Assembly: GCA_044449585.1 (NCBI GenBank)
Contig: JBIOID010000001.1
Coordinates: 1-26,391, forward strand
Direction of reading: 5' to 3'
DNA length: 26,391 nucleotides
Origin: Candidatus Limnocylindrales bacterium
Lineage (GTDB): Bacteria; Chloroflexota; Limnocylindria; Limnocylindrales; CSP1-4
Shown in pieces: positions 9,762-24,839 of the stretch. The notes under the pieces are model-generated. The model worked only from the letters and a program-made list of their open reading frames with translations, was not told the origin of the DNA and searched no databases. Both the position numbers and the translations under genes were made by a program. Position 1 is the first letter of the stretch. The number at the start of each line of letters is the position of its first letter.

Positions 9762-10430
9762 ATGCGTCTGCTCGTCGCTGAGGATGACCTGCGGCTTCGC
9801 TCCGTCCTGATCCGGGGGCTGGAGGCGCACGGATACGTCGTCGACGCGGTGACCAGTGGCCAGGAGGCCCTCGATTACCTGCGTTTCTACGACCCGGCCG
9901 TGATCATCCTCGACTGGAGGATGCCCGGCCTGACCGGCCTCGAAGTCCTCGGGCGGATGCGGGCCCAGGGCCGGTCGACAGCGGTCCTGATGCTGACGGC
10001 CCGTGACGCGCCAGTGGACCGCGTCACGGGTCTCGACGCGGGTGCCGACGACTACCTCGTCAAACCCTTCGACTTCGACGAGTTGCTGGCGCGCATCCGC
10101 GCTCTCCTGCGGCGGCCCGGGAGCCCGGATGCGCGGCTGCTGCGGCGTGGTGCCTTGACCCTGGACCCGGCCACGCGACAGGTGACTTCGGCAGCCGGGG
10201 CGCTCCACCTGACGCACATCGAGTTCGCCATCCTCGAGGTGCTCATGCTGCGCGCTCCTGCGGTCGTGGAGCGGGCACAGATCGCACAACATGCGTGGAA
10301 GGACGAGACCACCCCGCTCGGTTCGAACGTCATCGACGTTCGGATGGCGCGCCTGCGCGCCAAACTCGCCGACTCCGGCGTCCACATCGTCACCGTGCGC
10401 GGGTCCGGCTACCGCCTGGCTGCGACGTGA
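9762..10430 (+). CDS. OmpR-family response regulator (module A), 222 aa
   Basis: MRLLVAEDD, ILDWRMPG (phosphoacceptor Asp), LMLTARD, GADDYLVKPF and a C-terminal winged helix TVRGSGY. Confidence 0.95.
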   Translation: MRLLVAEDDLRLRSVLIRGLEAHGYVVDAVTSGQEALDYLRFYDPAVIILDWRMPGLTGLEVLGRMRAQGRSTAVLMLTARDAPVDRVTGLDAGADDYLVKPFDFDELLARIRALLRRPGSPDARLLRRGALTLDPATRQVTSAAGALHLTHIEFAILEVLMLRAPAVVERAQIAQHAWKDETTPLGSNVIDVRMARLRAKLADSGVHIVTVRGSGYRLAAT

Positions 10431-11722
10431 GGCGTTCGCTGGGGCACGTGCTACACGATCGACCGACCCGCGTGGCGGCCGCCGCCACCATGCTCGTCGG
10501 CGCGCTGTACGTCGGGTTGGCCCTGACCGTGGTTGCGATCGTCCAGCGAAACCTCTTCGATGCCATCGACCAGCGGTTATCGGCGGAGATCCAGGCCACG
10601 AGCCAGCGCGCCGATGCCGCGACGTTCGTGCCTGGACAGGAGACGAACGACTCTGACGACAGTCACCGCTTCGATGCGCCCCTGCTGGTCTGGCTCGTGC
10701 GCCCCGAGGGCACGGTGGATGCGAGCGCCCTCGCCCCGGGCCTCCCGACCGAGTTCCTGCGCGTCGCGCAACCGACGACCGCCATCATCGCCGGAACGAC
10801 GCTTCGCCTGGCCGGGGGGCCCATGCCAGACGGTTGGCTGGTGATCGGCCAGTCGACCGCCCAGGCCGCCAGCGCGCTCGGCACCGTCGTGCTGGCAGAG
10901 GTGCTGGTCGCTCCGGTCCTGCTGGCGATGGTCTTCATCGGGACGCTCATGGTCGGGCGGCGGGTCGCGGCCCCACTGGAGCGCGCTCGGCGGCGACAAC
11001 TCGATTTCACCGCCGATGCCTCCCATGAGCTGCGCACGCCCTTGACGGTCATCGAGGCGGAGACATCCCTCGCCCTGGGCTCGCAACGAGATGCGGAGGA
11101 GGATCAGGGCACGTTCGAGCGGGTCCATGCGGAAAGCCTGCACCTGCGCCGGATGGTGGATGACATGCTGTGGCTCGCTCGCTTCGACGCGGCCCCTGCG
11201 CCGCCCGACGCTGTGCCCGTCGACCTCGGTACCCTGGCCACCACGGCGGCGGAGCGGTTCCGCGCGGTCTGCGAACAGCGGGGGCTGCATCTTGCCACGG
11301 CCGCCGGACCCGGCAACACCGTCATCGTGGCACCGCCCGAATGGCTGACCCGCCTGGTCGGCGTGCTGGTCGACAACGCCACGAAGTACGCGTCGAGGGG
11401 CGGGCATGTCTCCGTGCGTGTGGCCGCGGTGGGTAGCCGCGTCCAGCTGGCCGTGGAGGACGATGGGCCAGGCATCCCGGCGGACCAGCGGGGACGGGTC
11501 CTCGACCGCTTCCACCGCGCGACGGACGAGCCGGTCGGAGCTGGCCTGGGGCTCTCCATCGCCGACGCCGTCGTCCACGCGTCCGGTGGTCGGTGGGAGA
11601 TCGGTGACGCCCCCAGTGGCGGCGCGCGCATGGCGGTGTCGTGGCCCCGAGCACCAGGTGGCGCGGGCGAATGGAAAGGGTCCGAACGGGCCGACCTGGC
11701 CGAAGGATCGGACCAGGGCTGA
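10427..11722 (+). CDS. Sensor histidine kinase (module A), 431 aa
   Basis: GTGA overlap with the RR stop. Two TM helices, H-box ADASHELRTP, N-box LVDNATKY, G1 DDGPGIP, G2 GAGLGLSI. Confidence 0.95.
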   Translation: MRRSLGHVLHDRPTRVAAAATMLVGALYVGLALTVVAIVQRNLFDAIDQRLSAEIQATSQRADAATFVPGQETNDSDDSHRFDAPLLVWLVRPEGTVDASALAPGLPTEFLRVAQPTTAIIAGTTLRLAGGPMPDGWLVIGQSTAQAASALGTVVLAEVLVAPVLLAMVFIGTLMVGRRVAAPLERARRRQLDFTADASHELRTPLTVIEAETSLALGSQRDAEEDQGTFERVHAESLHLRRMVDDMLWLARFDAAPAPPDAVPVDLGTLATTAAERFRAVCEQRGLHLATAAGPGNTVIVAPPEWLTRLVGVLVDNATKYASRGGHVSVRVAAVGSRVQLAVEDDGPGIPADQRGRVLDRFHRATDEPVGAGLGLSIADAVVHASGGRWEIGDAPSGGARMAVSWPRAPGGAGEWKGSERADLAEGSDQG

Positions 11723-11839
11723 GTCGCTCTGACCGCCGGGACCTCATTTCGGCTGTAGCCACCTGTCCCAAGCATGACGACGCACGACCGGGCTTGACTA
11801 AACCGCGATGAAGGCTTCTTAACGTCGCCCCCGACCCCA

Positions 11840-11869
11840 TTGACGCTCGCGATACAGCATGGCTAGCGT
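11840..11869 (+). promoter_or_regulatory. Putative sigma70-type promoter TTGACG-N18-TAGCGT
   Basis: -35 at 11840-11845 and -10 at 11864-11869, upstream of the beta-propeller gene. Same architecture as the 6626 promoter. Confidence 0.5.
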
Positions 11870-11908
11870 CGGCCTGTGCAGAGATCCAGGCGCTTCGATG
11901 GCCGTCAC

Positions 11909-13066
11909 ATGGCCCGCCGCGTCGACGGCCCGCGATGGCGCCGCGGTGTCCGGCGGAGGTTCGCGGCGGGCGGAGCAGGCGCCGGCGTCGTCCTCGTCGC
12001 ATTCGCCCTCCTTGGGGGCCAGCGCGCCACGACGCCGAGCAGCGACAGCCTTACCGCCCGCAGCACCGCCCCGCCCGTCCTTTCGACCGCGGTCCCGTCC
12101 GTGGATCTGGCCGCCAGTACGTCGCCGACTTCCACCCGCCCGTCGGCGGCACCCATCGCGAGCGGTGTGTTCGCGGGCGACCTGCTCATCGCCGACCGCG
12201 GGAACGGCCGCATCCTGATCGTCAACGCAGCGGACCAGATCCTCTGGCGCTTCCCGGTCGCCGGCAGTCTGCCGCCCGGACAGACGTTCAGCGCCGACGA
12301 CGCCTTCCTCTCACCGGATGGGCGCACGATCTCCGCCAACGAGGAGATGCGCCAGGTCCTCGTGCGTATCGACATCGCGAGTCGTCGCATCGTCTGGGAA
12401 TACGGCCACTACGGGCGCGCCGGGGCGGGCGCCGGGTACCTCGACACGCCCGACGATGCGTACCCGATGGCGAACGGGGACGTGACCGTGGCCGACATCT
12501 TCAATTGCCGCATCCTTGAGATCGCCCCCGACAAGCAGGTGGTCCGTCAATGGGGCCACACCGGCATCTGTCGCGACGCCCCGCCGTACAGCTACGACCA
12601 GCCCAACGGTGACACCCCGCTGCCGGATGGCGGTCTGCTCATCACCGAGATCCGCGGCTCGCGGGTCGTGCGCCTCGACTCGGCCGGTCGGGTCGTCTTC
12701 GACATCCACGTCCCCGTCAGCTATCCCTCTGATGCGCAGCTCGACGCCGCCGGCAACGTCATCGTCGCGGACTATTCCGCCCCCGGTGCGGTGGTGAAGA
12801 TGTCACCGACTGGCCACCTCCTGTGGCTATACGGCCCGCGAACGGGCCCGGGGCGACTCGATCACCCGAGCCTGGCCGTGCCGCTGCCCGACGGGACGAT
12901 CTTGCTGAACGACGACTTCCGCCACCGCGTGATCATCATCGACCCGCGAACCGACGCTATCGTCTGGCAATACGGTCGCTCAGATGCGCCGGGCCGGTCG
13001 TCTGGACGGCTGAACACGCCCGACGGGATAAACCTTGTGCCAGCGGGCAGCATCGTTGGCATCTGA
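11909..13066 (+). CDS. Membrane-anchored or secreted beta-propeller protein (NHL / PQQ-like / arylsulfotransferase-like repeats), about 385 aa
   Basis: Arg-rich N-terminus, hydrophobic helix and S/T/P linker. About six repeats (ADDAFLSPDG, PDDAYPMANG, PNGDTPLPDG, PSDAQLDAAGN, PSLAVPLPDG, PDGINLVP), each followed by D..R.v.i and ivWqYG strands. Confidence 0.8.
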   Translation: MARRVDGPRWRRGVRRRFAAGGAGAGVVLVAFALLGGQRATTPSSDSLTARSTAPPVLSTAVPSVDLAASTSPTSTRPSAAPIASGVFAGDLLIADRGNGRILIVNAADQILWRFPVAGSLPPGQTFSADDAFLSPDGRTISANEEMRQVLVRIDIASRRIVWEYGHYGRAGAGAGYLDTPDDAYPMANGDVTVADIFNCRILEIAPDKQVVRQWGHTGICRDAPPYSYDQPNGDTPLPDGGLLITEIRGSRVVRLDSAGRVVFDIHVPVSYPSDAQLDAAGNVIVADYSAPGAVVKMSPTGHLLWLYGPRTGPGRLDHPSLAVPLPDGTILLNDDFRHRVIIIDPRTDAIVWQYGRSDAPGRSSGRLNTPDGINLVPAGSIVGI

Positions 13067-13128
13067 CCGTCGATCCGGGCAGGTGGGCGTCGGTCGCCCT
13101 TGTAAGGGATTCGACAGCTTCCTTCCTC

Positions 13129-13134
13129 TAGGCT
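13129..13134 (+). promoter_or_regulatory. Putative -10 element TAGGCT, 7 nt before the apbE ATG (leaderless transcript candidate)
   Basis: TANNNT hexamer at the usual leaderless spacing from ATG 13142. No Shine-Dalgarno sequence in front of the ATG. Confidence 0.4.
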
Positions 13135-13141
13135 GCCCCGG

Positions 13142-14113
13142 ATGCTCGCAACCTCGACCGACGCCCGGGCGACCGCGATGAACGGCGTCGCACGTCGCAC
13201 GTGGGCCGCCCTGGGCACGACGTGCACCGTGCTGGTGACCCGGCCGGACCGCCTGGCTCCGGCCTGCGCGGCCGTGGAGGCCGAGCTGGACCTGGTCGAC
13301 GCGACGTACAGCCGGTTCCGCGCGGACTCGGAGTCGACCCGCCTCAACGGATCCGCCGGCCGGCCGACCGTCGTGAGCCCGCTCCTTGGGGAGGCGATCT
13401 CGGCCGCCCTGCAGGCCGCGCGCGTGACGGATGGAGCGGTGGATCCCACGGTCGGGCGAGCGATGCGCGCGATCGGCTACGACACGGACTTCGCCGACCT
13501 GTCCGGACGGGACGTGCCGCTGGTGCTGCGCCTGGAAGCTGTCCCCGGTTGGCGGGCCGTCGGCTTCGACGCCACCCGTCGCCTGCTGACCCTGCCGCAG
13601 GGCGTCGAGCTCGACCTGGGCTCGGTCGGCAAGGCCCTTGCCGCCGATCGGTCGGCGGCAGCGGCGCATCGTGCGATGGGCGCCGGCGGCGTGCTGGTGG
13701 GGCTGGGCGGCGACATCGCCATCGCCGGCCCGACGCCTCGATCGGGTTGGCCCGTGCTGGTCGCCGAAGACAGCCATGCCCCGTCGGATGGGCCGGGTGA
13801 GGTCCTGCGACTGACCGGCGGCGCCATCGCAACCTCGAGCACGACGGTTCGTCGGTGGGCCCAGTCGGGTCTCGCCCGCCACCACCTGGTCGATCCCGCC
13901 ACGGGTGCCCCGGTGGTCACGCCGTGGCGGAGCGCGACGGTGCTCGCCGGTTCGTGCGTGGACGCCAACACGGCCGCGACCGCGGCGATCGTCAAGGCGG
14001 ATCGCGCGGTCGAGTGGCTGGCCCGGATCGGCCTTTCCGCCCGGCTCATCGCCAACGATGGGCGCGTGCTCCGGCTCAACGGCTGGCCGTCCGGCGAGGC
14101 GGTGGCGGCGTGA
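13142..14113 (+). CDS. apbE: FAD:protein FMN transferase (ApbE family), copy A, 323 aa
   Basis: ALGT, SRFRADSE, DPTVG, ELDLGSVGKALAAD, LGGDIA, IATSST and HHLVDPATG motifs. Confidence 0.93.
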   Translation: MLATSTDARATAMNGVARRTWAALGTTCTVLVTRPDRLAPACAAVEAELDLVDATYSRFRADSESTRLNGSAGRPTVVSPLLGEAISAALQAARVTDGAVDPTVGRAMRAIGYDTDFADLSGRDVPLVLRLEAVPGWRAVGFDATRRLLTLPQGVELDLGSVGKALAADRSAAAAHRAMGAGGVLVGLGGDIAIAGPTPRSGWPVLVAEDSHAPSDGPGEVLRLTGGAIATSSTTVRRWAQSGLARHHLVDPATGAPVVTPWRSATVLAGSCVDANTAATAAIVKADRAVEWLARIGLSARLIANDGRVLRLNGWPSGEAVAA

Positions 14114-14721
14114 CTGACCAGGTGTTGTGGTTCGCCACGCGTGGGGCCGGCGCCGTGTCGCTGCTCATGCTGACGGGGGTCGTGCTGCTCGGGGTGCTCA
14201 GCGTCCACCGCTGGCAGGGCCCCTCCTGGCCCCGCTTCCTGACGGCCGGTCTGCACCGCAACCTGGCGTTGCTCTCGCTGGTCTTCCTCGCCATCCATAT
14301 CGTGACCGCAATCGTCGACCCCTTCACGGCGCTCGGCCTGGCGGCCGCCGTGGTGCCCTTCGCCTCGAGCTACCGACCGCTATGGGTCGGCGTCGGGGTC
14401 ATCGCCTTCGACTTGCTCCTTGCGCTGGTCGTGACGAGCCTCGTGCGAGCCCGGCTGGGCCACCGGACCTGGCGGGCCATCCACTGGGTCGCGTATGCCA
14501 TGTGGCCCCTGGCCCTCGCCCATGGCATCGGCAGCGGGTCTGACAACCTGGCACCGTGGATGCTGGCGCTCGACGTCCTGTGCGTGACCGTGGTCAGCGT
14601 CGCGATCGTCTTGCGGGTCCTGATCGTCCGAGCGGGCAGTCCTGACGAACTGCAGCGTGTGGTCGAATCCGGCGTGGCCGAGACGACCGCGACGGGCCTG
14701 CCGTGGGAGGTCGGGCGATGA
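14110..14721 (+). CDS. Ferric-reductase-like / MsrQ-like di-heme b membrane cytochrome, copy A, 203 aa
   Basis: GTGA overlap with apbE. About five TM helices and two His pairs, LHRNLALLSLVFLAIH (i, i+14) and IHWVAYAMWPLALAH (i, i+13), followed by GIGSGSD. Confidence 0.9.
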   Translation: MTDQVLWFATRGAGAVSLLMLTGVVLLGVLSVHRWQGPSWPRFLTAGLHRNLALLSLVFLAIHIVTAIVDPFTALGLAAAVVPFASSYRPLWVGVGVIAFDLLLALVVTSLVRARLGHRTWRAIHWVAYAMWPLALAHGIGSGSDNLAPWMLALDVLCVTVVSVAIVLRVLIVRAGSPDELQRVVESGVAETTATGLPWEVGR

Positions 14722-15962
14722 CTCGGCCACTCCAGGCACCACGGCTCCTCGCCGGGCCGGCCCTTGCCGCGGGGGCCGAACCCTTCCCTGATCACCAGGC
14801 GCGTCTGGGCCCCTTGCCCAGCTGGCGGGATGGAGCGCTCATCCCGGTCCTCGACGCCAGTGGCTTGAGCGGCCGCGGCGGAGCCGGCTTCCCGGTCGGC
14901 CGCAAATGGCGAGCGGTGGCCGATGCCGCCGGCGACTGGCCCGTCGTCCTGGTGAACGGAGCGGAGGGCGAGCCGCTGAGCGCCAAGGATCGCGCCCTGA
15001 TGGCCACACGGCCGCACCTGATCCTCGACGGCGCCCTGCTGGCGGCTGAAGCGGTCGCGGCGGAGCGGATCATCCTCTACGTCGGCGACGCACATCGGGC
15101 CGCGCGAGCGGCACTGGGCCGCGCCATCGTCGAACGAGGCCCCGCCGCCCAGGGCCGTTTCCGACTCGTCGCCGCTCCGGATCGCTACGTGGCCGGCGAG
15201 GAGTCAGCCGCGGTCCATTTCATCGACACCGGTGACGCCCGACCGGTGACCGTCCCACCCAGGCCATTCGAGCGGGGGGTCGGGGGCCGGCCGACCCTGG
15301 TCCAGAACGTCGAGACCCTGGCGCACGTCGCGCTCATCGCCCGATACGGTGACGCCTGGTACCGGGCGGCCGGTCCCGACGCGGCCCCGGGTACCGCGCT
15401 GGTCACGACGAGCGGCCCGGGGCGCCAGACGATGGTCCATGAGATCGACTTCGGGGAGACGATCGGTACGGTCGGCCAGCGGTTGGGGACACAGGCGGCC
15501 GACGTCCAGGCCGTTCTCATCGGTGGCTACTTCGGCGGTTGGATGGCTGGGTCGCGGGCGTGGTCGCAGCCCCTCGACCCGCTGAAGCTGCGCGAACAGG
15601 GGGTCGGATTCGGCTGCGGCGTGATCTCGTTCCTGGACCACGAGACATGCGGCGTGGATGTGGCTGCCCAGGTCATGGGCTACATGGCGGGCCAGAGCGC
15701 CGCCCAGTGCGGACCGTGCGTCTTCGGCCTGCGTGCGATCGCCGACGCCACCCTCCGCCTGGCCGGGGGCCGGGCGCAGGGCGATGATCTCGCTCGCCTC
15801 GAGCGGTGGATCGGGCAGCTGCGTGGACGGGGTGCCTGCCGTCATCCCGACGGCGCGGTCAACCATCTGGCCAGTGCCATGCACGTGTTCGGTGATGAGT
15901 TCCGGCTCCACCAGGTGCGCCGCACCTGCTCGCGCCGTGTGCGGGCCGAGCGCATCTCGTGA
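14718..15962 (+). CDS. Stand-alone NuoF-like (complex I 51-kDa family) FMN/NADH-binding Fe-S protein, 414 aa
   Basis: SGLSGRGGAGFP.GRKW, NGAEGEP.SAKDR, YVAGEESA, QNVETLA and a C-terminal QSAAQCGPC...GACRHPDG. ATGA overlap. No other nuo genes nearby. Confidence 0.9.
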   Translation: MTRPLQAPRLLAGPALAAGAEPFPDHQARLGPLPSWRDGALIPVLDASGLSGRGGAGFPVGRKWRAVADAAGDWPVVLVNGAEGEPLSAKDRALMATRPHLILDGALLAAEAVAAERIILYVGDAHRAARAALGRAIVERGPAAQGRFRLVAAPDRYVAGEESAAVHFIDTGDARPVTVPPRPFERGVGGRPTLVQNVETLAHVALIARYGDAWYRAAGPDAAPGTALVTTSGPGRQTMVHEIDFGETIGTVGQRLGTQAADVQAVLIGGYFGGWMAGSRAWSQPLDPLKLREQGVGFGCGVISFLDHETCGVDVAAQVMGYMAGQSAAQCGPCVFGLRAIADATLRLAGGRAQGDDLARLERWIGQLRGRGACRHPDGAVNHLASAMHVFGDEFRLHQVRRTCSRRVRAERIS

Positions 15963-16228
15963 GCGGCGCGCAGCCGATGCAGCTTGCGGTGGACCGCATC
16001 CGCTGCGACGGATCGGCGCTCTGTGCGGAGATCCTGCCGGAGCTGATCAGCCTCGACGACTGGGGTTACCCGATCCTCTTGGCCGCACCGGTGCCGAACC
16101 ACCTGCTGGACCTCGCTCGACAGGCCGTCGATGCCTGTCCGGTGCTGGCCCTGCGGCTGCAGGGCACCGTCAACAACCCTGGATCAGGTACGCAGACGGC
16201 CCGCGCCGCCCGGGTCCGGGCCCGCTGA
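15959..16228 (+). CDS. Monocluster ferredoxin, probably [3Fe-4S] (CxxSxxC...CP), 89 aa
   Basis: VDRIRCDGSALCAEILPE...GYP...AVDACPVLAL. GTGA overlap with the NuoF-like gene, with an alternative ATG at 15977. Confidence 0.88.
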   Translation: MSGAQPMQLAVDRIRCDGSALCAEILPELISLDDWGYPILLAAPVPNHLLDLARQAVDACPVLALRLQGTVNNPGSGTQTARAARVRAR

Positions 16229-16289
16229 CCGTGGCACGTCCGAACGGTCTTTGTGCGGTCGTAACGTGGCTGCGGCTGCTCTTGCGCAC

Positions 16290-16667
16290 ATGAACCAGCG
16301 ATCACGACGAGCCGCCCGATCACCCGCCGCGTATGCACGCGATGCGGGGCTGCGCCGTCTGCATGAGCTGACCGTGGCTGCGGCCGTGCTCGGCGCGACC
16401 GGGACGGTCGTGCTGGGCGGGGCGGCGGCGGTCACCTACGCGGGGCATGCCAGCCCCAGCAGCACGCCCGTCGAGCAGGGTGCCGCCACCGATCCCGGCG
16501 CGACGGGTCCGACCGGGTCGACGCCGACCACCCCTCCGGCGACCAGCGGCGGTCAACACCACAACCACAGCTCTTCGTCGGGGTCTCTCGGGCAGGTCCC
16601 GCCGCCGGTCACGAACGTGAGGCCGGGCAACCCTGGCTCGGGCCTCATCACCTCCGGAGGCTCGTAG
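16290..16667 (+). CDS. Small single-TM protein with a disordered S/T/G/P tail ending ITSGGS, 125 aa. Candidate flavinylation substrate.
   Basis: ATG at 16290, Arg-rich n-region with LRRL, hydrophobic helix VAAAVLGATGTVVLGGAAAV and a low-complexity tail. A -10-like TAACGT lies at 16262-16267. Confidence 0.75.
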   Translation: MNQRSRRAARSPAAYARDAGLRRLHELTVAAAVLGATGTVVLGGAAAVTYAGHASPSSTPVEQGAATDPGATGPTGSTPTTPPATSGGQHHNHSSSSGSLGQVPPPVTNVRPGNPGSGLITSGGS

Positions 16668-16680
16668 GGCCCGCGCAGGA

Positions 16681-16700
16681 CCGTTTCGGCCCAAACGCGG
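16681..16700. terminator. Possible bidirectional terminator hairpin between the convergent modules
   Basis: CCGTTT-cggccc-AAACGCGG imperfect stem in the 33-nt gap between convergent stop codons. No clear U-tract. Confidence 0.3.
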
Positions 16701-18005
16701 TCAGCGCAGGGGGATCCTGACCGTGAACCGGGCGCCCCCGCCTGGTTCATCGCCGACGACGATGGTGCCCCCATGTCGCTGGGCGACCGTTCGTGCGACG
16801 GCCAGCCCGAGGCCCGTCCCCTCGGCGCGCTCGCGCCGCCCGCCGGCCGCGCGAACGAACGGTTCGAAGATCCGTTCGCGGTCACCGGCAGGGACGCCTG
16901 GCCCCCGATCGCCTACCGATACCCAGCCGAAGCCGCGGTCACGACCCATGTCGACGGTGACCGTCGAGCCGTGGGGCGAATGGCGCGTGGCATTGTCCAG
17001 CAGCACCAGCATGACCTGGAGCAAGCGGTCGGCGTCGCCGCTGATCGGCAGCGCCGGGGGTGGGTCGGCCGCGACGGCCACCGTGCACCCGCGTTCCGCC
17101 CCGAGCGGCGCCACCCGGGCGACGGCGTCGACCGCGATCGCCGCAAGGTCGAGTGGTTCGAGGTGGACGACACTGGGATCGACGCGCGAGACCGACAGGG
17201 CGAGCAGACCCGCCACCAACCGGCTCAGCCGATCGGCTTCGGCCACGATGCCCGTCACGAGGGCCGCGCCCTCGGGTCGCACCAGCGCCTCGCGCTGCAG
17301 CACCTCGCCCGAGGCGTGGATGATGGCCGCCGGGGTGCGCAACTCGTGGGACGCGGCGGCCACGAACCGTCGCTCGGTCGCGAACGCGGCCCGGATCGGG
17401 ACGAGCGCGCGGCCAGTCAGGAGCAGGGCGAGCAGGGCGGCACAGGCCAGGCCGACGAGACCCACGAGGGTCACCGTGCCCACCAGGTCAGACGCCTGCC
17501 GGTCGTGCAGGGTGAGGATGAGACCGGCCTGGACGGCGCCGATCGCGGCCGCCCCGTCGGACGAGGGGATCGCGAGCGTCAGCAGTCGGACCGGCAGCCC
17601 CCCGGCCGTGACCGTGCGCAGATCTGATCCGGCCGCCAATGCGTGCGACAGCGCGGCCCTATCGGGCAGACCTGCCAGCCGGATGCCCCGCGGGTTCTGC
17701 ACCACGTGGCCGGAGGGGTCGAGCACCGTCACGAATGTGTCTGACGAGCCGACCGGCTCGTCGCTGGTCGCCGTCTCGCTGTCGCCGCCGTCAGCCCCGG
17801 GAAGCTGTCCCTCCAGGCCAGTCAGGGCGTTCTGCGCGGTCGACCGCAGGGCGGCGTCCGTCGCGGCGTCGAGCTGGGCCGTGACCACCACGACCGTCGC
17901 GACCCCCATCGCGACCAGCAGAGCGGCGAGCAGACCGAGCGTCAAGAGCGCCAGTCGGCGACGCGTCGAAACGAGCAGGCGCTCGGTGGGATCGCGCACG
18001 GTCAC
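16701..18005 (-). CDS. Sensor histidine kinase (module B), 434 aa
   Basis: Two TM helices, H-box AAASHELRTP, LLDNATRH, DRGPGVP and GTGLGLAV. GTGA overlap with the RR. Confidence 0.95.
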   Translation of the reverse strand: MTVRDPTERLLVSTRRRLALLTLGLLAALLVAMGVATVVVVTAQLDAATDAALRSTAQNALTGLEGQLPGADGGDSETATSDEPVGSSDTFVTVLDPSGHVVQNPRGIRLAGLPDRAALSHALAAGSDLRTVTAGGLPVRLLTLAIPSSDGAAAIGAVQAGLILTLHDRQASDLVGTVTLVGLVGLACAALLALLLTGRALVPIRAAFATERRFVAAASHELRTPAAIIHASGEVLQREALVRPEGAALVTGIVAEADRLSRLVAGLLALSVSRVDPSVVHLEPLDLAAIAVDAVARVAPLGAERGCTVAVAADPPPALPISGDADRLLQVMLVLLDNATRHSPHGSTVTVDMGRDRGFGWVSVGDRGPGVPAGDRERIFEPFVRAAGGRRERAEGTGLGLAVARTVAQRHGGTIVVGDEPGGGARFTVRIPLR

Positions 18006-18673
18006 GCCTCACTGAGCGTATAGCCGACACCGCGCACGGTGCGCAGTCGCCGGCCACGGCCGAGCGTCGCCAGCTTCCGGCGAAGGTAGGAGACGTACAG
18101 GTCGACGACGTTCGAGTAGACGTCCGGCTCGGCGCCCCACACCGCATCGAGGATCTGGCGACGACTCAGCACGCGCCCCGCGTTGCGGATGAGGTACGCG
18201 AGCAAGGCGAACTCACGCGCCGTCAGCTCGACGCTGGCGTCGCCGACGCGGGCGACGTGGCGTTGCTGATCCAGCTCGATGTCGCCGGCCACCAACCGTT
18301 CCTCGGCGGTCGCGACCGGCCGCCGGCCGAGTGCACGAAGTCGCGCCAGGAGCTCGGCGAAGGCGAACGGCTTGGTCAGGTAATCATCTGCCCCGGCGTC
18401 GAGGCCGACGACCCGCTGCTCGACCGAGCCGAGGGCCGTCAGCATGAGCACGGGCGTCCGATCGCCGCGTCCGCGCAGGAGCTGGAGCACCTCGGTACCA
18501 TCCAGGTCGGGCAGCATGCGGTCGAGGACGATGGCGTCGTAGCCGCCGTTGCCAGCCAGCGCCAGCCCTGCCACCGCGTCCTCGGCGAGGTCGACCCCGA
18601 AGCGCTCAGCGACCAGCACCCGGCGGATCAATTCCCCCATCCGGGGCTCATCCTCGACGATCAGGACACGCAT
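18002..18673 (-). CDS. OmpR-family response regulator (module B), 223 aa
   Basis: MRVLIVEDE, VLDRMLPD, LMLTALG, GADDYLTKPF, VVDLYVSYLRRKL and TVRGVGY. Confidence 0.95.
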   Translation of the reverse strand: MRVLIVEDEPRMGELIRRVLVAERFGVDLAEDAVAGLALAGNGGYDAIVLDRMLPDLDGTEVLQLLRGRGDRTPVLMLTALGSVEQRVVGLDAGADDYLTKPFAFAELLARLRALGRRPVATAEERLVAGDIELDQQRHVARVGDASVELTAREFALLAYLIRNAGRVLSRRQILDAVWGAEPDVYSNVVDLYVSYLRRKLATLGRGRRLRTVRGVGYTLSEA

Positions 18674-18758
18674 CACCTCATCGTTGGGAGCTGGCGCCGG
18701 GCGGTCAACGTCCGAACGGCCCCTTTTCGGGGGAGCGTCCGGTCACCTGGGCGAGCGT

Positions 18759-19622
18759 TCACGCCGCCCGCGGTGCGCCCACGGCGACGGGCCAGTAGTT
18801 CTCGACGATGATGGCGGCGGTGGGGAAGCCGCATGCCACCAGGGCCGCCGTTGCCGCGGTGATCGCTTCAGGGTTGCCGCAGAGATAGGCGATCGTGCGG
18901 TCCGGGTCGACCGCTGATCGTTCGCAGACGCTGGCCAGGATCCCGTCGATGCGCCCGGTCAGGCCGGTCCACTCGCGGTTGTCGGGGTGCGCGGGTCGCG
19001 AGACCACCGGGATGTAGCGCAGCCGGGGATCGGTCTCGGCCCGACGCGCGAGCTCGTCCCGATACGCCAGTTCCGCCACGTAGGCGACGCCGTGGACGAC
19101 CACGGCGCTGGGCCGGATGCCACCGTCGGGCACGGACAGGACCGTCTCGAGCATCGAGCGCATGGGCGCCAGGCCCGTACCGGTCGCGATGAAGAGGTGC
19201 GCACGAGGATCCTGGGAGCGCAGGACGAAGAGGCCCTTGGGCTTCCCGATGCGGACGCGGGCGCCGACCGGCAATGTCCAAAGCCGCGGCGTCAGCGCGC
19301 CGCTCGCGACGCGCCGGATCAGGAACTCGAGGCTTTTGGACGGGCCCGGCACCGACGCGGTCGAGTAGGGCCGTTGCAGCAGATGGCCGTCGAGCAGCAG
19401 GCCAAGCGCGAGGTATTGACCGGGCTCGAAACGCGGGACGCCATCGTCCGGCCTGATCCAGAAGCGAGCGACGGATGGTGTGAGATCGACCCGGCGGACC
19501 AGCGTGGCATTCGGGACAGCGGCCCCCACCGCCGCGGCTCGGGTGGTGACTCCGCCGATGGCGTGCACGGGTTCGTCCCACGCACCGGCAGCGTCCCTCG
19601 TGACCATCGCCTCGACGCTCAT
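18759..19622 (-). CDS. Ferredoxin-NAD(P)+ reductase-like FAD/NAD(P)-binding oxidoreductase, 287 aa
   Basis: FEPGQY, RPYST (FAD), GALT, IATGTGLAPM, YLCGNP and ENYW. The ATG at 19622 overlaps the ferredoxin stop (ATGA). Confidence 0.92.
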   Translation of the reverse strand: MSVEAMVTRDAAGAWDEPVHAIGGVTTRAAAVGAAVPNATLVRRVDLTPSVARFWIRPDDGVPRFEPGQYLALGLLLDGHLLQRPYSTASVPGPSKSLEFLIRRVASGALTPRLWTLPVGARVRIGKPKGLFVLRSQDPRAHLFIATGTGLAPMRSMLETVLSVPDGGIRPSAVVVHGVAYVAELAYRDELARRAETDPRLRYIPVVSRPAHPDNREWTGLTGRIDGILASVCERSAVDPDRTIAYLCGNPEAITAATAALVACGFPTAAIIVENYWPVAVGAPRAA

Positions 19623-19909
19623 GCGGCGGGCATCAGGGCGTCGACGGCGGCGCGCGCGGCGTCGGGGTCCCGGTAGAACGACGCCTCGACGCGCGCGTAG
19701 GCGGCCCACTCGGCCGGTAGCGCATCGATGCGGAAGATGGCGCCATTGGGACACGCCGCTTCGCACGATCCACAGTCGATGCACCCGCCCGGGTCGACGT
19801 AGAACTTGCGGTCGATGTCAGGGTCGGCGCTGATGCAGTCGACCGGGCAGACGGCCACGCAGGACTGGTCCATATGATCGATGCACGGTTCGGCGATGAC
19901 GTAGGCCAT
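19619..19909 (-). CDS. fdxA: 7Fe (3Fe-4S + 4Fe-4S) FdxA-type ferredoxin, 96 aa
   Basis: MAYVIAEPCIDHMDQSCVAVCPVDCI...CIDCGSCEAACP with a C-terminal helical extension. RBS AAGGAGG. Confidence 0.9.
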   Translation of the reverse strand: MAYVIAEPCIDHMDQSCVAVCPVDCISADPDIDRKFYVDPGGCIDCGSCEAACPNGAIFRIDALPAEWAAYARVEASFYRDPDAARAAVDALMPAA

Positions 19910-19921
19910 GGTGGGACCTCC

Positions 19922-20674
19922 TTACACGGGATGAGCGGCGGACGCCAGGCGCGGCTGCGCAAGGGCGATGACCACCCGGTAGACGAAGAAGAAGACGACG
20001 AGGGCGCACGGCACCAGGTACGACCAATACGCCCAACCGGCGCCGCTGTCCGATCCGGACGCGATGCCGTGGGCGGTGACCCCCAGGAAGCCGGCGAAGG
20101 TCAGGTAGTGGATGAGGCGCCAGGCGCGCTGCCCGATCCGGCGGCGCACGTAGAAGCTGCCCGTCACGATGGCGATGACATAGAACGCCAGCTGGCCGAT
20201 GCCGACCGCGACCGGCGCATAGGGCGACGCGAACGGCACGGCGATGGCGACAGGTGTGAACGCATACGTGTGGTCGCCCAGGAGCAGGAGCCCGTGCAGC
20301 GCCGACAACGCCAGCCCGACCAGCGCCAGGTCCTTGTGCAGGGCGAAGCTCACCGGTCGATGGGCGATCCGGTCAAGGAGCTTGGTCGAGAGCAGCAGGC
20401 CGTAGGTGACCGACCCGGCCACCGCGAAGTAGGCCAGGAAGCCGGTGGCACGCACGGCATACCAGGCGATGTTGGCCGGCGTGATGGCGGCCGCCGTCGC
20501 CAGTGTCGACAGCGCGCCAGGCAGCGTCGCTCCGATGACGATGCCGAGCATGGCGCCGTAGGTGAGCGCGACCGCGACCGCCACTGGGCGCGGGAGCCCG
20601 CGATAGACCGGGACGCGGGCTGCGGCTCGGCCGGCCGGTGCGCCGGTGCTCGTTGCGGGGGTGGGCGGGGGCAT
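19922..20674 (-). CDS. Ferric-reductase-like / MsrQ-like di-heme b membrane cytochrome, copy B, about 250 aa
   Basis: WYAVRATG, His pairs LHKDLALVGLALSALH (i, i+14) and IHYLTFAGFLGVTAH (i, i+13), and GIASGSD. It has an extra N-terminal TM compared with copy A. Confidence 0.9.
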   Translation of the reverse strand: MPPPTPATSTGAPAGRAAARVPVYRGLPRPVAVAVALTYGAMLGIVIGATLPGALSTLATAAAITPANIAWYAVRATGFLAYFAVAGSVTYGLLLSTKLLDRIAHRPVSFALHKDLALVGLALSALHGLLLLGDHTYAFTPVAIAVPFASPYAPVAVGIGQLAFYVIAIVTGSFYVRRRIGQRAWRLIHYLTFAGFLGVTAHGIASGSDSGAGWAYWSYLVPCALVVFFFVYRVVIALAQPRLASAAHPV

Positions 20675-20687
20675 CTCGCGACTCGCT

Positions 20688-21659
20688 CTAGGCCGCAAGG
20701 AGCGCCAGCGTGCCGGGCAGGGCCAACGTCTCGTGACGCTCGGTCAGGATGACCGCCCCGTCCACACCCGCCCGTTCGAGCCGGGTGAGTCCGTCGTGGG
20801 AGCCGGCGATGACGGTCGCCTTCGCGAACGCCTCGGCCTGCAGCGCGGTCGCACAGATGACGGTGGCCTGGATGATGTCCGTGACTGCCGGCTGACGCGT
20901 GCGCGGATCGATGAGATGGTGACGGACGCGGCCGTCACGGTGCCAGCGGTGGACGGACGTACCCGATGTCGCCACGCCCCAGCGGCTCGGCCACCCGTCG
21001 TCCTGGGCATCGAGATGGAGGATGGCCAGGGTCGCTTCGGCGGCACGCGGGTCGTCGACGGCCACCTCCCAGCGCTGCCCCGAAGCGCCCCGTATCGCGA
21101 GGTCGCCATCGGCGTCGATCACGACGCTCGGCCACGAGGTGAGGAGGGCAAGGGCACGGTCGGCGAGCCAACCCTTGGCGATGCCGCCGAGGTCGAACCG
21201 CAGGCCCGCCGGCCGCTGCACGACCGCTCCGCGGCGCAGATCGGGCGTGACCGACCAGCGACCGGAAGCCGGCCCATGCGAACGGGCAGCGAGCAGCCCC
21301 TCGGCCGCCAACCGCTCGTCGAGCAGGGTGACGTCGACGAGGCCGTCGCCCAGGCGCTGAGCCGAGGCCCCGGCGGCCAAGGCCGCTGCGAGGGTCGGCC
21401 CGACGAGCACCTCCGAACCCGGCGCCGCGTTGAGCCGGGACAGTTCGGACGTGTCGAGGTGCCGGCTCAGGCGGTCACCCCAGTGGCACATCCGGGCCAG
21501 CACCCGCTGGGCATCACGACCGGCGCGTACCGCATCGGTCGACGCGATGTGGACCGCGAGCCGGCCACCCATGGCCGACGTCGTCTCCGAGATCGGGGCG
21601 ATCGGCTCGCGGATCGAACCGTGACGCGTCTTGGTCGCTCGAGGATGAGCCGATCCCAT
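20688..21659 (-). CDS. apbE: FAD:protein FMN transferase (ApbE family), copy B, 323 aa
   Basis: AMGG, LSRHLDTSELSRLN, FDLGGIAKGWLAD, DADGDL, GVATSGT and HHLIDPRT. The ATG at 21659 overlaps the upstream stop (TGATG). Confidence 0.93.
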   Translation of the reverse strand: MGSAHPRATKTRHGSIREPIAPISETTSAMGGRLAVHIASTDAVRAGRDAQRVLARMCHWGDRLSRHLDTSELSRLNAAPGSEVLVGPTLAAALAAGASAQRLGDGLVDVTLLDERLAAEGLLAARSHGPASGRWSVTPDLRRGAVVQRPAGLRFDLGGIAKGWLADRALALLTSWPSVVIDADGDLAIRGASGQRWEVAVDDPRAAEATLAILHLDAQDDGWPSRWGVATSGTSVHRWHRDGRVRHHLIDPRTRQPAVTDIIQATVICATALQAEAFAKATVIAGSHDGLTRLERAGVDGAVILTERHETLALPGTLALLAA

Positions 21660-22030
21660 CACGGGATCACCTTGCCGGACTGGGTCGTGCGCACCACCAC
21701 GGTCCTCTGGGCGGGTGCGGGTACGCGCGTCACGATCGTGATCGGGCGTGGTGCCTGGGCATCGATGACCGTCGCGCCCGGGGGCGGGGACTGGCCCGGC
21801 GCCAGCTGGACATACTGGATCGGCGTTTGCTGGGTGAGCGTGGCCGAGGTGGCGGACGTCGACCCAGGTGCGGTCGCTGCCGCGGAGGGAGGGACCACGA
21901 TGGCCGCGACGAGGGCCGACAGCGCCGCCGCCCCCGCCATGCCGACGGCGATGCGCAGTTGCGTCGGGTCCGGCCGCGCGGCGGTCGGCCGTACGGGCCG
22001 TGTCGGGGGGATCACCGGTCGCGTGTCCAT
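21659..22030 (-). CDS. Small single-TM Pro/Thr-rich protein ending VRTTQSGKVIP, 123 aa
   Basis: One hydrophobic helix IAVGMAGAAALSALVAAIVV. TGATG overlaps with both neighbours, indicating translational coupling. Confidence 0.78.
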   Translation of the reverse strand: MDTRPVIPPTRPVRPTAARPDPTQLRIAVGMAGAAALSALVAAIVVPPSAAATAPGSTSATSATLTQQTPIQYVQLAPGQSPPPGATVIDAQAPRPITIVTRVPAPAQRTVVVRTTQSGKVIP

Positions 22031-22356
22031 CAGCCGCCGCCGTCCTGCCCGTCGTCCCCGGGCTCACCGCCGGCGCCGGCCACCACGACGTGGACCACCT
22101 TCGGGGGGGCCGCGGGCGCCGCCTGCGTGACGTTGATGACCTGGGGCGGAGGCGCCGGCCGGACGTATACCAATTGCGGTGCCACCGACCCACCCGCGCT
22201 CGAAGGCGATGTCCCGTCCCCGACGGATCCGATCAGACCAGCCGACGGGGACGATGACGTCGCCTGGGAGCCGTGGGCGAGCCCGGCGCCGCCGACCGTC
22301 GCGACCACGGCGACAGTGGCCACGATCAGGGCGATGCGGTGAGCGGAGATGTCCAT
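22030..22356 (-). CDS. Small signal-peptide/TM protein with a Ser/Pro-rich body and a Gly/Asp tail, 108 aa
   Basis: MDISAHRIALIVATVAVVATVGGAGLA..., RBS AGAGGAAG, -10-like TAGCTT (22405-22400) and a TGATG overlap with the next gene. Confidence 0.75.
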   Translation of the reverse strand: MDISAHRIALIVATVAVVATVGGAGLAHGSQATSSSPSAGLIGSVGDGTSPSSAGGSVAPQLVYVRPAPPPQVINVTQAAPAAPPKVVHVVVAGAGGEPGDDGQDGGG

Positions 22357-22647
22357 GCGGTAGCTTCCTCTATTCGGCCGCGAGCCCGGCTTCACGAAGA
22401 AGCTAGTCGTCCAACCTGTGTCGCCACCTTGGACGAACGTGAGAAGACGCTCATGGGATGTGCTCGCCACTCGGAGGTCAGGGTCTGCCATGTGCCGACC
22501 CGCCTCTCAGGTAGTCAGAGGCCTGGCCGCGCCGGAAGGTTTCGGCGCACTTGGCGATACGCCCCACGTGACGGCGGCGATCGAGGCGCCGACAAAGCCC
22601 TCGCCCACGACTCGGTCGCCAGGCTCCGACCTGCTGGCGTGCGAGGA

Positions 22648-24090
22648 TCAGAGCACGAGTTCCTCTTCCGCTTCGGCCCGCACCCCGGCCGATACCGGCT
22701 CGCCCCACACCTCGCCGACCTCCTCGCCGGGCCGGGTTCGCGTCCGGCGCATGCTGATCTCGATGACGTCGTGGGCCAGCACCAGCTCGAGCGCCCAATC
22801 CAGCGCGACCCGCAGGCGGCGGTCGCGGCTCGGCAGGCGCAGCAGGTAGTAGGTCCGCCAGAGGAACCAGGCCACGAAGCCGGAGACCTTGATGCCCAGG
22901 ACCTCGCCGACGCCGTTGAAGCGGCCGAGCGAGACCAGCATGCCCTGCTGACCATAGTCGAACGGTAGTGGTCGCCCACCGTCGAGGACGGCCAGGATGT
23001 TGCGCGCCGCATGTGGCCCCTCGCGCACGGCATGCTGTGCAGTGGCCGGCATCGGCCGCCCGGTCCGCGGGTCGAGGATCGAGGCGCAGTCCCCGAGCGC
23101 CCACACCCGGTCGAGCCCCGGCACGGCGAAGGTGGCATCCGGCCGGATCCAGCCACTGGCTTCCACCGATCCGCCGAGACGGGCGACGACCGGATGGGGG
23201 GCATTCCCGACCGTGCTGACGACCGTTGCGGTCGCGATGGACGTCCCGTCGTCAAGCTCCACCCGGTCCGCCTCCACGCGCACCAGGCGATGCTTGAGCA
23301 CGAGTCTCACCCCGGCCCGCCCGAGCTTCCGCGTGGCATACCGGGCCAGCCGCTCCCCGAACTCGGAGAGCACGTTCGCCCGGCTGTGGACGAGCACGAC
23401 TTCCGGCTCCGGGAGGTTGGTGAAGGTCCGCCGCGCCGTGCGCAGCAGGTCCTCGAGCTCGGCTGCGACCTCCACCCCGGTCGATCCGCCACCGACGACC
23501 ACGAACGTAAGGAGGGCTTTCTGCCGCTCGGGATCCAGCTCGCTGGCGGCCTCCTCCAGCATCGACAGGGCCCGGTTCCGAAGGTAGAACGCATCCCCCA
23601 GGCTGCGCACTCCGATGGCGTGATCAGCCATGCCGGGTACCGTGTCGAAGTCGGTCACGCTTCCCAGCGCGACGACCAGCGCGTCGTAGTCCACGGTGAA
23701 CCGGGCATCGCTCTGTCGTCGCCGGATCTGGACACGCCGGCGGACCGGGTCGATCTCTTCGACGTTCCCGACTTCGACCTCGACGCCTCGCAGCATCCGT
23801 CGCAGGGGGACCACCACGTGCGTGGTCTCGATGGCCCCCGAGACGATGTCGGCGAGCAGCGGCTGGAAGACGAAGTAGTTGTCCCGGCTGATCAGGGTCA
23901 CGGAGACCGGGCCGCCCGGGGCGGCCATCGAGTCGCGAGCGCCCGGTCGGTGGCTGTCCGCGAGCCGACCCTGGCGGCGAAGTCGTCGGACCAGCTCCTG
24001 CGCCGCGGAGACGCCCGCGAATCCGCCCCCGAGCACGACGATGTGCTGGACGCGTGGCGAGCGCGATCGCTCGGTGGCCGACGATCCCAC
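22648..24090 (-). CDS. ndh: NAD(P)/FAD-dependent oxidoreductase of the type II NADH dehydrogenase (NDH-2) family, about 480 aa
   Basis: IVVLGGGFAG, YFVFQPLL, YDALVVALGS, VVGGGSTGVEVAAE, WALGDCA, ATAQHAVREG and WRTYYLLRLP. GTG start at 24090 after AAGGGAGA. Confidence 0.88.
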   Translation of the reverse strand: MGSSATERSRSPRVQHIVVLGGGFAGVSAAQELVRRLRRQGRLADSHRPGARDSMAAPGGPVSVTLISRDNYFVFQPLLADIVSGAIETTHVVVPLRRMLRGVEVEVGNVEEIDPVRRRVQIRRRQSDARFTVDYDALVVALGSVTDFDTVPGMADHAIGVRSLGDAFYLRNRALSMLEEAASELDPERQKALLTFVVVGGGSTGVEVAAELEDLLRTARRTFTNLPEPEVVLVHSRANVLSEFGERLARYATRKLGRAGVRLVLKHRLVRVEADRVELDDGTSIATATVVSTVGNAPHPVVARLGGSVEASGWIRPDATFAVPGLDRVWALGDCASILDPRTGRPMPATAQHAVREGPHAARNILAVLDGGRPLPFDYGQQGMLVSLGRFNGVGEVLGIKVSGFVAWFLWRTYYLLRLPSRDRRLRVALDWALELVLAHDVIEISMRRTRTRPGEEVGEVWGEPVSAGVRAEAEEELVL

Positions 24091-24131
24091 GTTTGGTCTC
24101 CCTTCAGCAGCCGGCGGCGCGACCGACCACC

Positions 24132-24758
24132 TCACGGCCGCGTGAGGAGATCGCGCAGCTGCCGATGAGCTCGGCGCGTCCTGGTCTTGACCGTGCCCAG
24201 GGGCCACCCGAGGCGCGTCGCGATCTCCGACTGTGAGAGCCCCTCTCCGTAGGCCAGCTGGACGACCTGTCGCTCCGGCAGACCCAGGTGCGCGAGCCCG
24301 GCCGTGATGGACGCGCGCGCCTCCTGGCGCAGCAGGGTGGCCTCGGGTCCGGCCTCGGGCTGGGCCGCGCCGACCAGCTCGCCCGTCTCCTCGAGCCGTT
24401 CCGCGATCGCGTCGCTCTCTGTCTCGTCACCGCCGAACCATGAGAAAGGTGTGGTGCGCACGCGCCGCGTGGCGCGCAGATGGTCGATGGCGCGGTTGCG
24501 AGCGATGGTGGTCAGCCACGTGCGCAACGACCCCCGCGACTCGTCGAACCGCTCGGCCCGGTCCCACAGCGTCAAGAATGTATCTTGCAGCACTTCGGTG
24601 GCGAGCGAGCGATCGCCGCACGTGCGCAGGGCCGTCGTGAAGACCGCCGAGCTGTGTCGATCGTACAGGGCCGCGAGGGCCTCCTCGGACCCCTCGATCA
24701 TGTGGCGGATGAGGTGCGTGTCGGGGGCCGCCCCGAGCGACGCGCCGTCGGTGTCCAT
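24132..24758 (-). CDS. ECF RNA polymerase sigma factor (SigK-like), 208 aa
   Basis: Region 2: ALAALYDRH...EVLQDTFL.LW...F...RGSLRTWL..IARNRAID. Region 4: YGEGLSQSEIA.RLG.PLGTVKTR. RBS GGGAG before ATG 24758. Confidence 0.93.
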   Translation of the reverse strand: MDTDGASLGAAPDTHLIRHMIEGSEEALAALYDRHSSAVFTTALRTCGDRSLATEVLQDTFLTLWDRAERFDESRGSLRTWLTTIARNRAIDHLRATRRVRTTPFSWFGGDETESDAIAERLEETGELVGAAQPEAGPEATLLRQEARASITAGLAHLGLPERQVVQLAYGEGLSQSEIATRLGWPLGTVKTRTRRAHRQLRDLLTRP

Positions 24759-24789
24759 CTCCCGTCTCCCGCGGTGTTTCTGGAGTAAG

Positions 24790-24833: not shown

Positions 24834-24839
24834 ACCGAG

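Follow-up and report, generated by a model that had tools for sequence, protein, structure and literature searches.

Two ApbE/MsrQ-like modules in a soil Chloroflexota genome with small anchored proteins as candidate flavin acceptors

The systems closest to those described here are the MsrQ-like flavinylation clusters, of which 1797 have been catalogued, mostly in Actinobacteria and typically with a gene for an FMN_bind protein (Meheust et al. 2021, eLife, PMC8238504). The definition behind that catalogue required a signal peptide on one target gene (PMC8238504), so clusters like the two reported here would have been left uncollected. We analyzed a stretch of 26,391 nucleotides (the window) from contig JBIOID010000001.1, which belongs to a metagenome-assembled genome (MAG; 1.9 Mb, completeness 66%) of a soil Chloroflexota bacterium, Candidatus Limnocylindrales. 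The window holds two gene clusters, each with a homolog of ApbE, the flavin adenine dinucleotide (FAD):protein flavin mononucleotide (FMN) transferase. In cluster 1 the enzyme ApbE1 is found with the small membrane protein smC, and in cluster 2 ApbE2 is found with smA and smB. Our main conclusion, which we consider moderately probable, is that these are two paralogous, sensor-kinase-linked MsrQ-like modules in which small proteins with distinctive tails serve as dedicated ApbE acceptors and replace the FMN_bind protein.

As in the catalogued clusters, the ApbE gene adjoins, in both window clusters, a gene for a PF01794 protein with six transmembrane (TM) segments and two predicted hemes (FR1 in cluster 1, FR2 in cluster 2), the predicted electron input is NAD(P)H, and electron transfer from the cytosol to the outside is proposed. 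Unlike in the catalogue, we found no target-gene signal peptide: both window ApbEs are leaderless, and the other three families are absent. The window clusters also lack the FMN_bind gene that is typical, if not obligatory, there. Their NAD-binding part is not fused but supplied by a separate flavoenzyme and ferredoxin, and small tail proteins stand in the acceptor's place. The modules are best read as a variant of MsrQ-like flavinylation systems with minimal, tail-tagged acceptors. An earlier note on this DNA, made from the sequence alone, had regarded the side-by-side architectures as unusual; they are less so than claimed, as ApbE together with MsrQ-like and NuoF-like proteins had already been catalogued in 31 clusters (PMC8238504).

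Short terminal acceptors have precedents. Seven residues are enough as an ApbE tag, and termini work best (Tong et al. 2021, reviewed in PMC12052999); the Asp of the tag is nearly dispensable, and a G-to-A or A-to-V exchange cuts the yield by half (PMC12052999). FMN_red proteins are flavinylated at an unstructured C-terminal extension (Huang et al. 2024, 10.1101/2024.03.13.584918). The window-type tails resemble the Flavin-tag and the C-terminally flavinylated FMN_red proteins in offering a short, unstructured terminal peptide with a candidate acceptor Ser/Thr at or near the C-terminus. However, Flavin-tag and FMN_red sites keep [S/T]GA[S/T], the natural ones on a flavoprotein fold, whereas window-type tails end in SGGS, TRSSR, SHAS, or R.R.S or carry T.QSG, on proteins without a flavin-binding fold.

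A second precedent concerns the cytochromes. Escherichia coli MsrPQ and the eukaryotic NOX and STEAP proteins have a six-TM, bis-His di-heme core that moves electrons across the membrane. FR1 and FR2 have a similar predicted six-TM bis-His core but are without an MsrP-like molybdoenzyme partner or a fused dehydrogenase, and their input would come via ferredoxin.

Small proteins with invariant termini and their candidate ApbE partners

The G+C content of the window is 70 to 74%, and genes were called from third-position GC bias (GC3) and then with Pfam (Table 1). smC consists of an Arg-rich N-terminus, one TM segment, a variable linker, and a fixed C-terminus, GSG[LM][IV]TSGGS, with which all of its database relatives (17/17) end. 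Five Chloroflexota loci (L013 to L017) have an smC homolog with cluster 1, each ending in GSGMVTSGGS past a variable linker; the conserved part is the last ∼10 residues only. An smC-like open reading frame (ORF) of an actinomycete (genome G005) ends in ASSGGS and overlaps the start of its ApbE gene.

smB is conserved in its TM helix and over its last ∼55 residues and varies in the linker that joins them. Its 181 relatives are all annotated as "hypothetical," and none has a Pfam domain. The terminus [RK]T[TS]QSG, ahead of the last residues, is present in 120/120 close relatives. An exhaustive profile search gave 210 representatives at 50% identity, and T.QSG lies within the last ten residues of 131 of the 145 that were newly listed. 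smA is Pro-rich, with beta-strand-like blocks and an acidic/Gly tail, and is kept upstream of smB in relative loci L019 to L024, L036, and L038 to L051. The earlier description of the small proteins as single-TM and disordered falls short for the end of smB, which is conserved. None of the three matched a Pfam family at E ≤ 0.1, PF04205 (FMN_bind) included, or obtained a name from the ESM Atlas, where all neighbors are unnamed, or from NCBIfam, and our literature search found no paper on small tail-motif proteins or on the system. Two assignments were rejected. A twin-arginine (Tat) export signal does not fit: smC shares an Arg pair with the ORFs of actinomycetes, but what follows the pair is off the Tat consensus, and smB and the low-GC homologs do not have it. 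An anti-sigma role for smA does not fit its cytosolic N-terminus of only a few residues.

Both ApbEs pass the PF02424 cut-off of 25.6 bits, and from about residue 20 to 30 onward (∼20 in ApbE1) their sequences line up with the mature part of ApbEs of known structure. A hydrophobic N-terminus is absent from ApbE1, and the N-terminus of ApbE2 is nonhydrophobic across 120 sequences (the window protein and the 119 homologs listed); leaderless status was thus judged from alignment start and N-terminal hydrophobicity. Cytosolic ApbEs exist (PMC12052999). The catalytic His motif HHxxDP is kept as HHLVDP in ApbE1 and HHLIDP in ApbE2, and T231, S232, and G233 (TSG) as well as H247 and H248 are invariant in 109 ApbE2-family sequences. 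The Mg site is where the enzymes depart from the canonical Asp and Thr of D-A-L-(A/S)-T, which we found in neither of them. ApbE1 reads VDANTAAT here, with Asn at the Asp position, the Thr kept (N..T), and an Asp two residues upstream. In ApbE2, Glu276 and Lys280 replace Asp..Thr (E..K); E276 is invariant and K280 is present in at least 90% of 109 homologs.

We pooled 80 further ApbE2-type loci with the earlier ones to obtain 84 E..K-type ApbE genes. A TM ORF with a Thr/Ser terminus, ending at the ApbE start, directly precedes 73 of these 84 genes, and among the 80 loci surveyed nearly every one has the PF01794 gene downstream of ApbE. The expectation that small ORFs are conserved beside homologous clusters was therefore borne out, in cluster 1 by the smC homologs of L013 to L017. 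The E..K-type termini differ by lineage, with T.QSG in Limnocylindria, TRSS(R) at the end in Anaerolineae, Caldilineales, and Thermoflexus, a terminal SHAS in Actinomycetota, and a terminal R.R.S in low-GC Chloroflexia. In the small-ORF termini, a hydroxyl residue stands three positions ahead of the conserved Ser, which is the spacing of the hydroxyls in [S/T]-G-A-[S/T]. The tail also covaries with the ApbE site: D..T goes with DTVSGAT on an FMN_bind domain, N..T with SGGS, and E..K with T.QSG, TRSSR, SHAS, or R.R.S.

The pairing of smB with ApbE2 was also modeled. ApbE2 was docked with FAD and smB residues 60 to 123, with three controls, and the median of three runs was taken. The docking score was 0.89, and that of the best control was 0.00. 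In calibration, 58 of 80 solved complexes attained the docking mark, against 2 of 110 mismatched pairs; these rates are rough here, as our own alignments were supplied and the ligand was included. Confident contacts join smB 98 to 118, including RTTQS, to ApbE2 180 to 187 (DADGD), 229 to 235 (ATSGTS), and several strands. The model supports binding of the smB tail near the FAD site of ApbE2 and is silent on catalysis. On the basis of the invariant termini, the translational coupling to ApbE, and the docking result, we suggest that the small TM ORFs are the best tether candidates.

Can a canonical acceptor account for the two enzymes instead? PF04205 had no match among window ORFs at E ≤ 0.1. 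In the flanks of ∼100 related loci a low-sensitivity screen also gave none: an iterative profile search of six-frame ORFs, seeded with the FMN_bind domain found on contig C19 of the same genome, returned the query alone and missed the control in L037, and is too insensitive to count as absence. The C19 protein (L011:5037-9213) is the one PF04205 protein of the genome. It is anchored, carries DTVSGAT, and lies beside its own ApbE, which is leaderless and canonical (D..T), and beside a NOX-like fusion of Ferric_reduct, FAD, and NAD domains. The C19 locus thus provides the same three functions as a window cluster, with a leaderless ApbE and an acceptor of the same anchor-linker-acceptor layout. 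It differs in that the acceptor is a folded FMN_bind domain, the Mg site is canonical, and the cytochrome carries its reductase domain in the same polypeptide. A two-domain cupredoxin protein adjoins the C19 locus. A fourth ApbE, truncated at the end of contig C21 (L012:3816-6837), neighbors a P-type ATPase that has a hemerythrin domain at its C-terminus.

Related genomes show a similar arrangement. In the Chloroflexota genomes G001 to G003, a single FMN_bind gene adjoins its own ApbE, and additional leaderless ApbEs occur without one, a pattern that suggests a separate ApbE for each acceptor here and in these relatives. G005, a complete 3.55-Mb actinomycete chromosome, has two ApbE loci homologous to the window type, one of which (L035) is a full cluster-1 homolog in the order response regulator, histidine kinase, smC-like ORF, ApbE, FR, NuoF, and ferredoxin. 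This chromosome gave no match to PF04205 (E ≤ 0.1) or DUF2271, and its only other candidate acceptor is one weak NqrB/RnfD-like match. With its own ApbE alongside, and with PF04205 missing altogether from a complete related genome, the C19 FMN_bind protein is an improbable substrate for ApbE1 or ApbE2. The earlier note's statement that an FMN_bind substrate is missing thus stands for the clusters and fails for the genome. The C19 protein is formally the find that the note had named as telling against its reading, yet it does not explain ApbE1 and ApbE2.

Two kinds of apparent canonical motif were discarded. Matches to D..[ST]GA[ST] upstream of smB in L064, L069, and L092 fall in the antisense frame of a response-regulator gene, and a match in the FNR-like reductase of L020 is not kept in the window protein. 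At high GC, the antisense strand of OmpR-type genes gives long shadow ORFs with a false DT.SGAT (L023, L031, L064, L069, and L092), a pitfall for searches by motif.

Cytochromes and electron input

FR1 and FR2 match the Ferric_reduct/MsrQ-like di-heme class by profile and by their His pairs, and heme binding is predicted. His 49, 63, 125, and 138 of FR1 and His 121, 135, 197, and 210 of FR2 fall in the same invariant columns of an 8-sequence alignment that covers two phyla (Chloroflexota and Actinomycetota) and includes the genome's own NOX-like protein. In both proteins the pairs are spaced 14 and 13 residues, one pair each in TM3 and TM5. An actinomycete FR1 homolog (L035:6490-7623, G005) has a Ser/Thr/Gly-rich C-terminal extension of ∼200 residues that the window FR1 does not have.

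The NuoF-like protein of cluster 1 keeps its FMN/NADH domain but lacks the features that mark the NuoF of complex I. It scores 195 bits against the NuoF equivalog model (cut-off, 558), has Ala for the first Cys of the four-Cys N3 4Fe-4S motif, and is an orphan, with no nuoE or nuoG in a Pfam scan of the window ORFs. It is coupled to the ferredoxin Fdx1 by a GTGA overlap. In cluster 2, the corresponding pair consists of an FNR-like reductase, which is kept in relative loci L020 and L036 and in many of the surveyed ApbE2-type loci, and of Fdx2, which scores 92 bits against the FdxA_Actino model, under its cut-off of 125. In relative loci L038 and L044, the core of smA, smB, ApbE2, and FR2 is followed by NuoF and Fdx1, where cluster 2 of the window has FNR and Fdx2. 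Input pairs thus swap behind the same core, which is consistent with electrons passing from NAD(P)H to a flavoenzyme, on to a ferredoxin, and then to the cytochrome. The earlier interpretation, in which such a chain ends on a tethered acceptor made by ApbE, is in part upheld: its core logic fits the conservation of the modules and the swappable input pairs, and its flavin attachment, external acceptor, and metal reduction or envelope repair are hypothetical.

The beta-propeller protein of cluster 1 is absent from the closest cluster-1 relatives (L013 to L017), and a homolog with 57% identity lies directly after FR2 in L084 (6775-7935) of another Chloroflexota genome. The protein may be an accessory and a candidate external partner of the modules.

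A proposed mechanism and its rivals

We propose the following mechanism. The first step would be reduction of the small ferredoxin by a cytosolic flavoenzyme that uses NAD(P)H and is NuoF-like in cluster 1 and FNR-like in cluster 2. The ferredoxin would pass electrons to the inner heme of the four-His Ferric_reduct/MsrQ-like protein and from there across to the outer heme. In place of an FMN_bind protein, the acceptor would be a tiny protein anchored through its N-terminus, whose flexible linker leads to an invariant Ser/Thr tail. In cluster 1 this would be smC, with its terminal TSGGS, served by ApbE1, and in cluster 2 smB, with RTTQSG near its end, served by ApbE2. Each tail would be modified by its own signal-less ApbE, most likely with an FMN phosphoester on the conserved Ser, and, as the ApbEs appear to be cytosolic, modification would precede export of the tail. 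The role of such modules might be metal reduction or envelope repair, as the earlier note proposed.

A more far-reaching version, which we put forward tentatively, is that small anchored proteins without a flavin fold form a new class of ApbE substrates. Their novel tail motifs (terminal SGGS, T-x-Q-S-G, and terminal TRSSR) would have coevolved with the active sites, the exchange of Lys for Thr perhaps making catalysis metal independent. FMN would be attached in the cytosol to a Ser at or beside the C-terminus of a flexible tail, and the exported tail would act as a swinging carrier between the outer heme and an external acceptor.

Several observations weigh against the small proteins as acceptors. 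No protein of either cluster contains [ST]GA[ST]; the SGGS of smC is one core position off the canonical motif and has no Asp, and the T-T-Q-S of smB retains just its two hydroxyl positions. With Lys for the Mg-ligand Thr and Glu for the Asp, ApbE2 may have a different chemistry. The docking interface is broad, with beta-strand-like segments that a stable scaffold would explain as readily as a substrate would, and the docking score expresses how confident the model is rather than anything measured. With a MAG completeness of only 66%, part of the gene set is out of view. There is also a conflict of topology: the Arg-rich N-terminal flank and the Ser/Thr/Pro linkers predict an outside position for the tails, whereas an export signal is missing from the ApbEs. 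All three ApbEs of the genome with candidate acceptors are leaderless, including that of C19 with its anchored FMN_bind partner, and modification before export would be the simplest reading of this conflict.

The best-surviving alternative, which we nevertheless consider unlikely, is that the small proteins are scaffolds. Through strand addition, their tails would capture the leaderless ApbE and keep it at the membrane beside the cytochrome, in place of the classical lipid anchor, and the flavin acceptor would be the cytochrome itself or a protein encoded elsewhere. This would account for the contacts of smB 98 to 118 with several ApbE2 strands and its C-terminus, beyond the active-site loops, for the conservation of the whole smB end rather than of a motif alone, and for the distance of that motif from [S/T]GA[S/T]. 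It accounts less well for the extreme terminus being the most invariant part, with a Ser/Thr pair at canonical spacing, for the confinement of smC conservation to the very end, and for termini that covary with active-site residues of ApbE. Nor did we find an alternative acceptor motif in FR or the other cluster proteins, and G005 encodes neither an FMN_bind nor a DUF2271 match.

A still less probable explanation is that the divergent ApbEs, the E..K type especially, are not FMN transferases and either place another nucleotide-derived group on the tail or bind flavin and traffic it to the cytochrome or ferredoxin system. The exchanged Mg sites (Glu..Lys in the E..K type, Asn in ApbE1) point this way. 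Ftp of Treponema pallidum, with the same fold, is reported to hydrolyze FAD rather than transfer FMN (PMC4767422). On the other side, the His of HHxxDP and the Ser of TSG, members of the proposed catalytic triad, are invariant, an acidic residue is kept, and the FAD-site loops touch the smB tail in the docking model. In addition, our alignment places an aromatic residue (Phe) of ApbE1 at the position that divides transferases from the T. pallidum pyrophosphatase. This position is Tyr in ApbE transferases and Asn in the T. pallidum enzyme.

A last reading takes the C19 FMN_bind protein, or another encoded in the third of the genome that is missing, as the real substrate of every ApbE, with the small ORFs as unrelated membrane proteins. 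It has in its favor the DTVSGAT-bearing protein and the incompleteness of the MAG, but it is highly improbable given that C19-type genes have their own adjacent ApbE here and in G001 to G003, that G005 maintains two homologous ApbE loci with no PF04205 match at E ≤ 0.1, and that in 73 of 84 loci a small ORF is coupled to ApbE. We therefore retain the small tail proteins as the preferred candidate acceptors.

Gene map, surroundings, and meaning of the modules

Pfam and alignment confirmed the two gene sets seen earlier, each with a two-component system, an ApbE, a four-His cytochrome, a ferredoxin, an NAD(P)H flavoenzyme, and small TM proteins (Table 1).

Table 1. Features of the two clusters, with window coordinates
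Feature	Coordinates	Strand	Evidence
RR1, OmpR-type response regulator	9762..10430	+	PF00072 + PF00486; GTGA overlap with HK1
HK1, sensor histidine kinase	10427..11722	+	PF00512 + PF02518
NHL/PQQ-like beta-propeller, N-terminally anchored	11909..13066	+	PQQ_2/NHL matches; one TM-like segment
ApbE1, leaderless FAD:protein FMN transferase homolog	13142..14113	+	PF02424, 167 bits
FR1, short MsrQ/Ferric_reduct-like predicted di-heme membrane protein, 203 aa	14110..14721	+	PF01794, 38-40 bits (cut-off 28)
NuoF-like NADH-binding flavo-iron-sulfur protein	14718..15962	+	PF01512 + PF10589
Fdx1, single-cluster ferredoxin (Fer4_15)	15959..16228	+	PF13459/PF13370; CxxSxxC...CP, 3Fe-type pattern
smC, small single-TM protein, 125 aa	16290..16667	+	GC3 frame support; relatives
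HK2, sensor histidine kinase	16701..18005	-	PF00512 + PF02518; GTGA overlap with RR2
RR2, OmpR-type response regulator	18002..18676	-	PF00072 + PF00486
FNR-like NAD(P)H:ferredoxin reductase	18759..19622	-	PF00970 + PF00175; ATGA overlap with Fdx2
Fdx2, FdxA-like 7Fe-type ferredoxin	19619..19909	-	Fer4 families; Cys pattern
FR2, MsrQ/Ferric_reduct-like predicted di-heme membrane protein	19922..20698	-	PF01794, 28.4-29.1 bits (cut-off 28; borderline)
ApbE2, leaderless ApbE, E..K subfamily, 323 aa	20688..21659	-	PF02424, 135 bits
smB, small anchored protein, 123 aa	21659..22030	-	Conserved C-terminal module; TGATG coupling
smA, small anchored protein, 108 aa	22030..22356	-	GC3 frame support; TGATG junction

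The translational coupling noted before was likewise found in the sequence, as four GTGA, two ATGA, and two TGATG overlaps. FR1 is bordered by GTGA and ATGA junctions, Fdx1 by GTGA, and smA, smB, and ApbE2 are chained by TGATG. The clusters had been called head-to-head; they are convergent and lie tail-to-tail, with 33 nucleotides between the stops at 16667 and 16701. A 501-amino-acid ApbE ORF is a frame artifact, as shown by a GC3 frame change near 21640 and the TGATG junction. The true start of ApbE2 is the ATG at 21659, which overlaps the smB stop.

The regulators travel with their clusters. RR1 is kept with cluster 1 in L013 to L017 (Chloroflexota) and L035 (actinomycete G005), and copies 69 to 85% identical to RR2 lie beside the ApbE2-type clusters of relatives. 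HK1 has TM-like segments at residues 21 to 39 and 154 to 172 with an extracytosolic loop between them.

Upstream of smA lie NDH2 (∼24051-22648) and an extracytoplasmic function (ECF) sigma factor (24761-24132). We excluded both from the module, as a gap of ∼290 nucleotides separates them from smA and their position is not kept in relatives. The ECF sigma gene, with its true start near 24761 in ORF 24132-25337, is divergent from a MarR-family regulator gene; the long N-terminal extension of the ORF was rejected, as the MarR gene occupies the opposite strand there. Elsewhere in the window we noted an MIP aquaporin (25446-26105) and a 1191-amino-acid protein (277-3852) that combines a double zinc ribbon at its N-terminus with adenylate/guanylate cyclase and AAA_16 ATPase domains. 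A search of sequencing runs found no RNA run with the window sequence and one soil DNA run with 8% of the sampled words. Taken as a whole, the observations of the earlier note are confirmed with these corrections, and its interpretation is partly supported.

Both clusters are kept in Chloroflexota, and cluster 1 is also kept in Actinomycetota. On contig C2 of G001, cluster 1 (L015) and a complete cluster 2 (L036) lie ∼32 kb apart; the pairing of the two modules in one neighborhood thus recurs.

Every ApbE substrate validated to date has an [S/T]GA[S/T]-like motif, and outside the engineered flavin tags this motif belongs to a folded domain. If the tail proteins are true substrates, the ApbE substrate code would be broader than assumed, and surveys based on motifs and signal peptides would have overlooked a widespread family of systems among the Chloroflexota and Actinomycetota of soil. 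There would then be a new route to extracytosolic flavoproteins, with the cofactor attached in the cytosol before export, and the tails would be natural, very short flavin tags that offer new enzyme/tag pairs for protein labeling. With three ApbE variants in one genome, each with a different candidate acceptor, the window and its genome provide a test bed for these possibilities.

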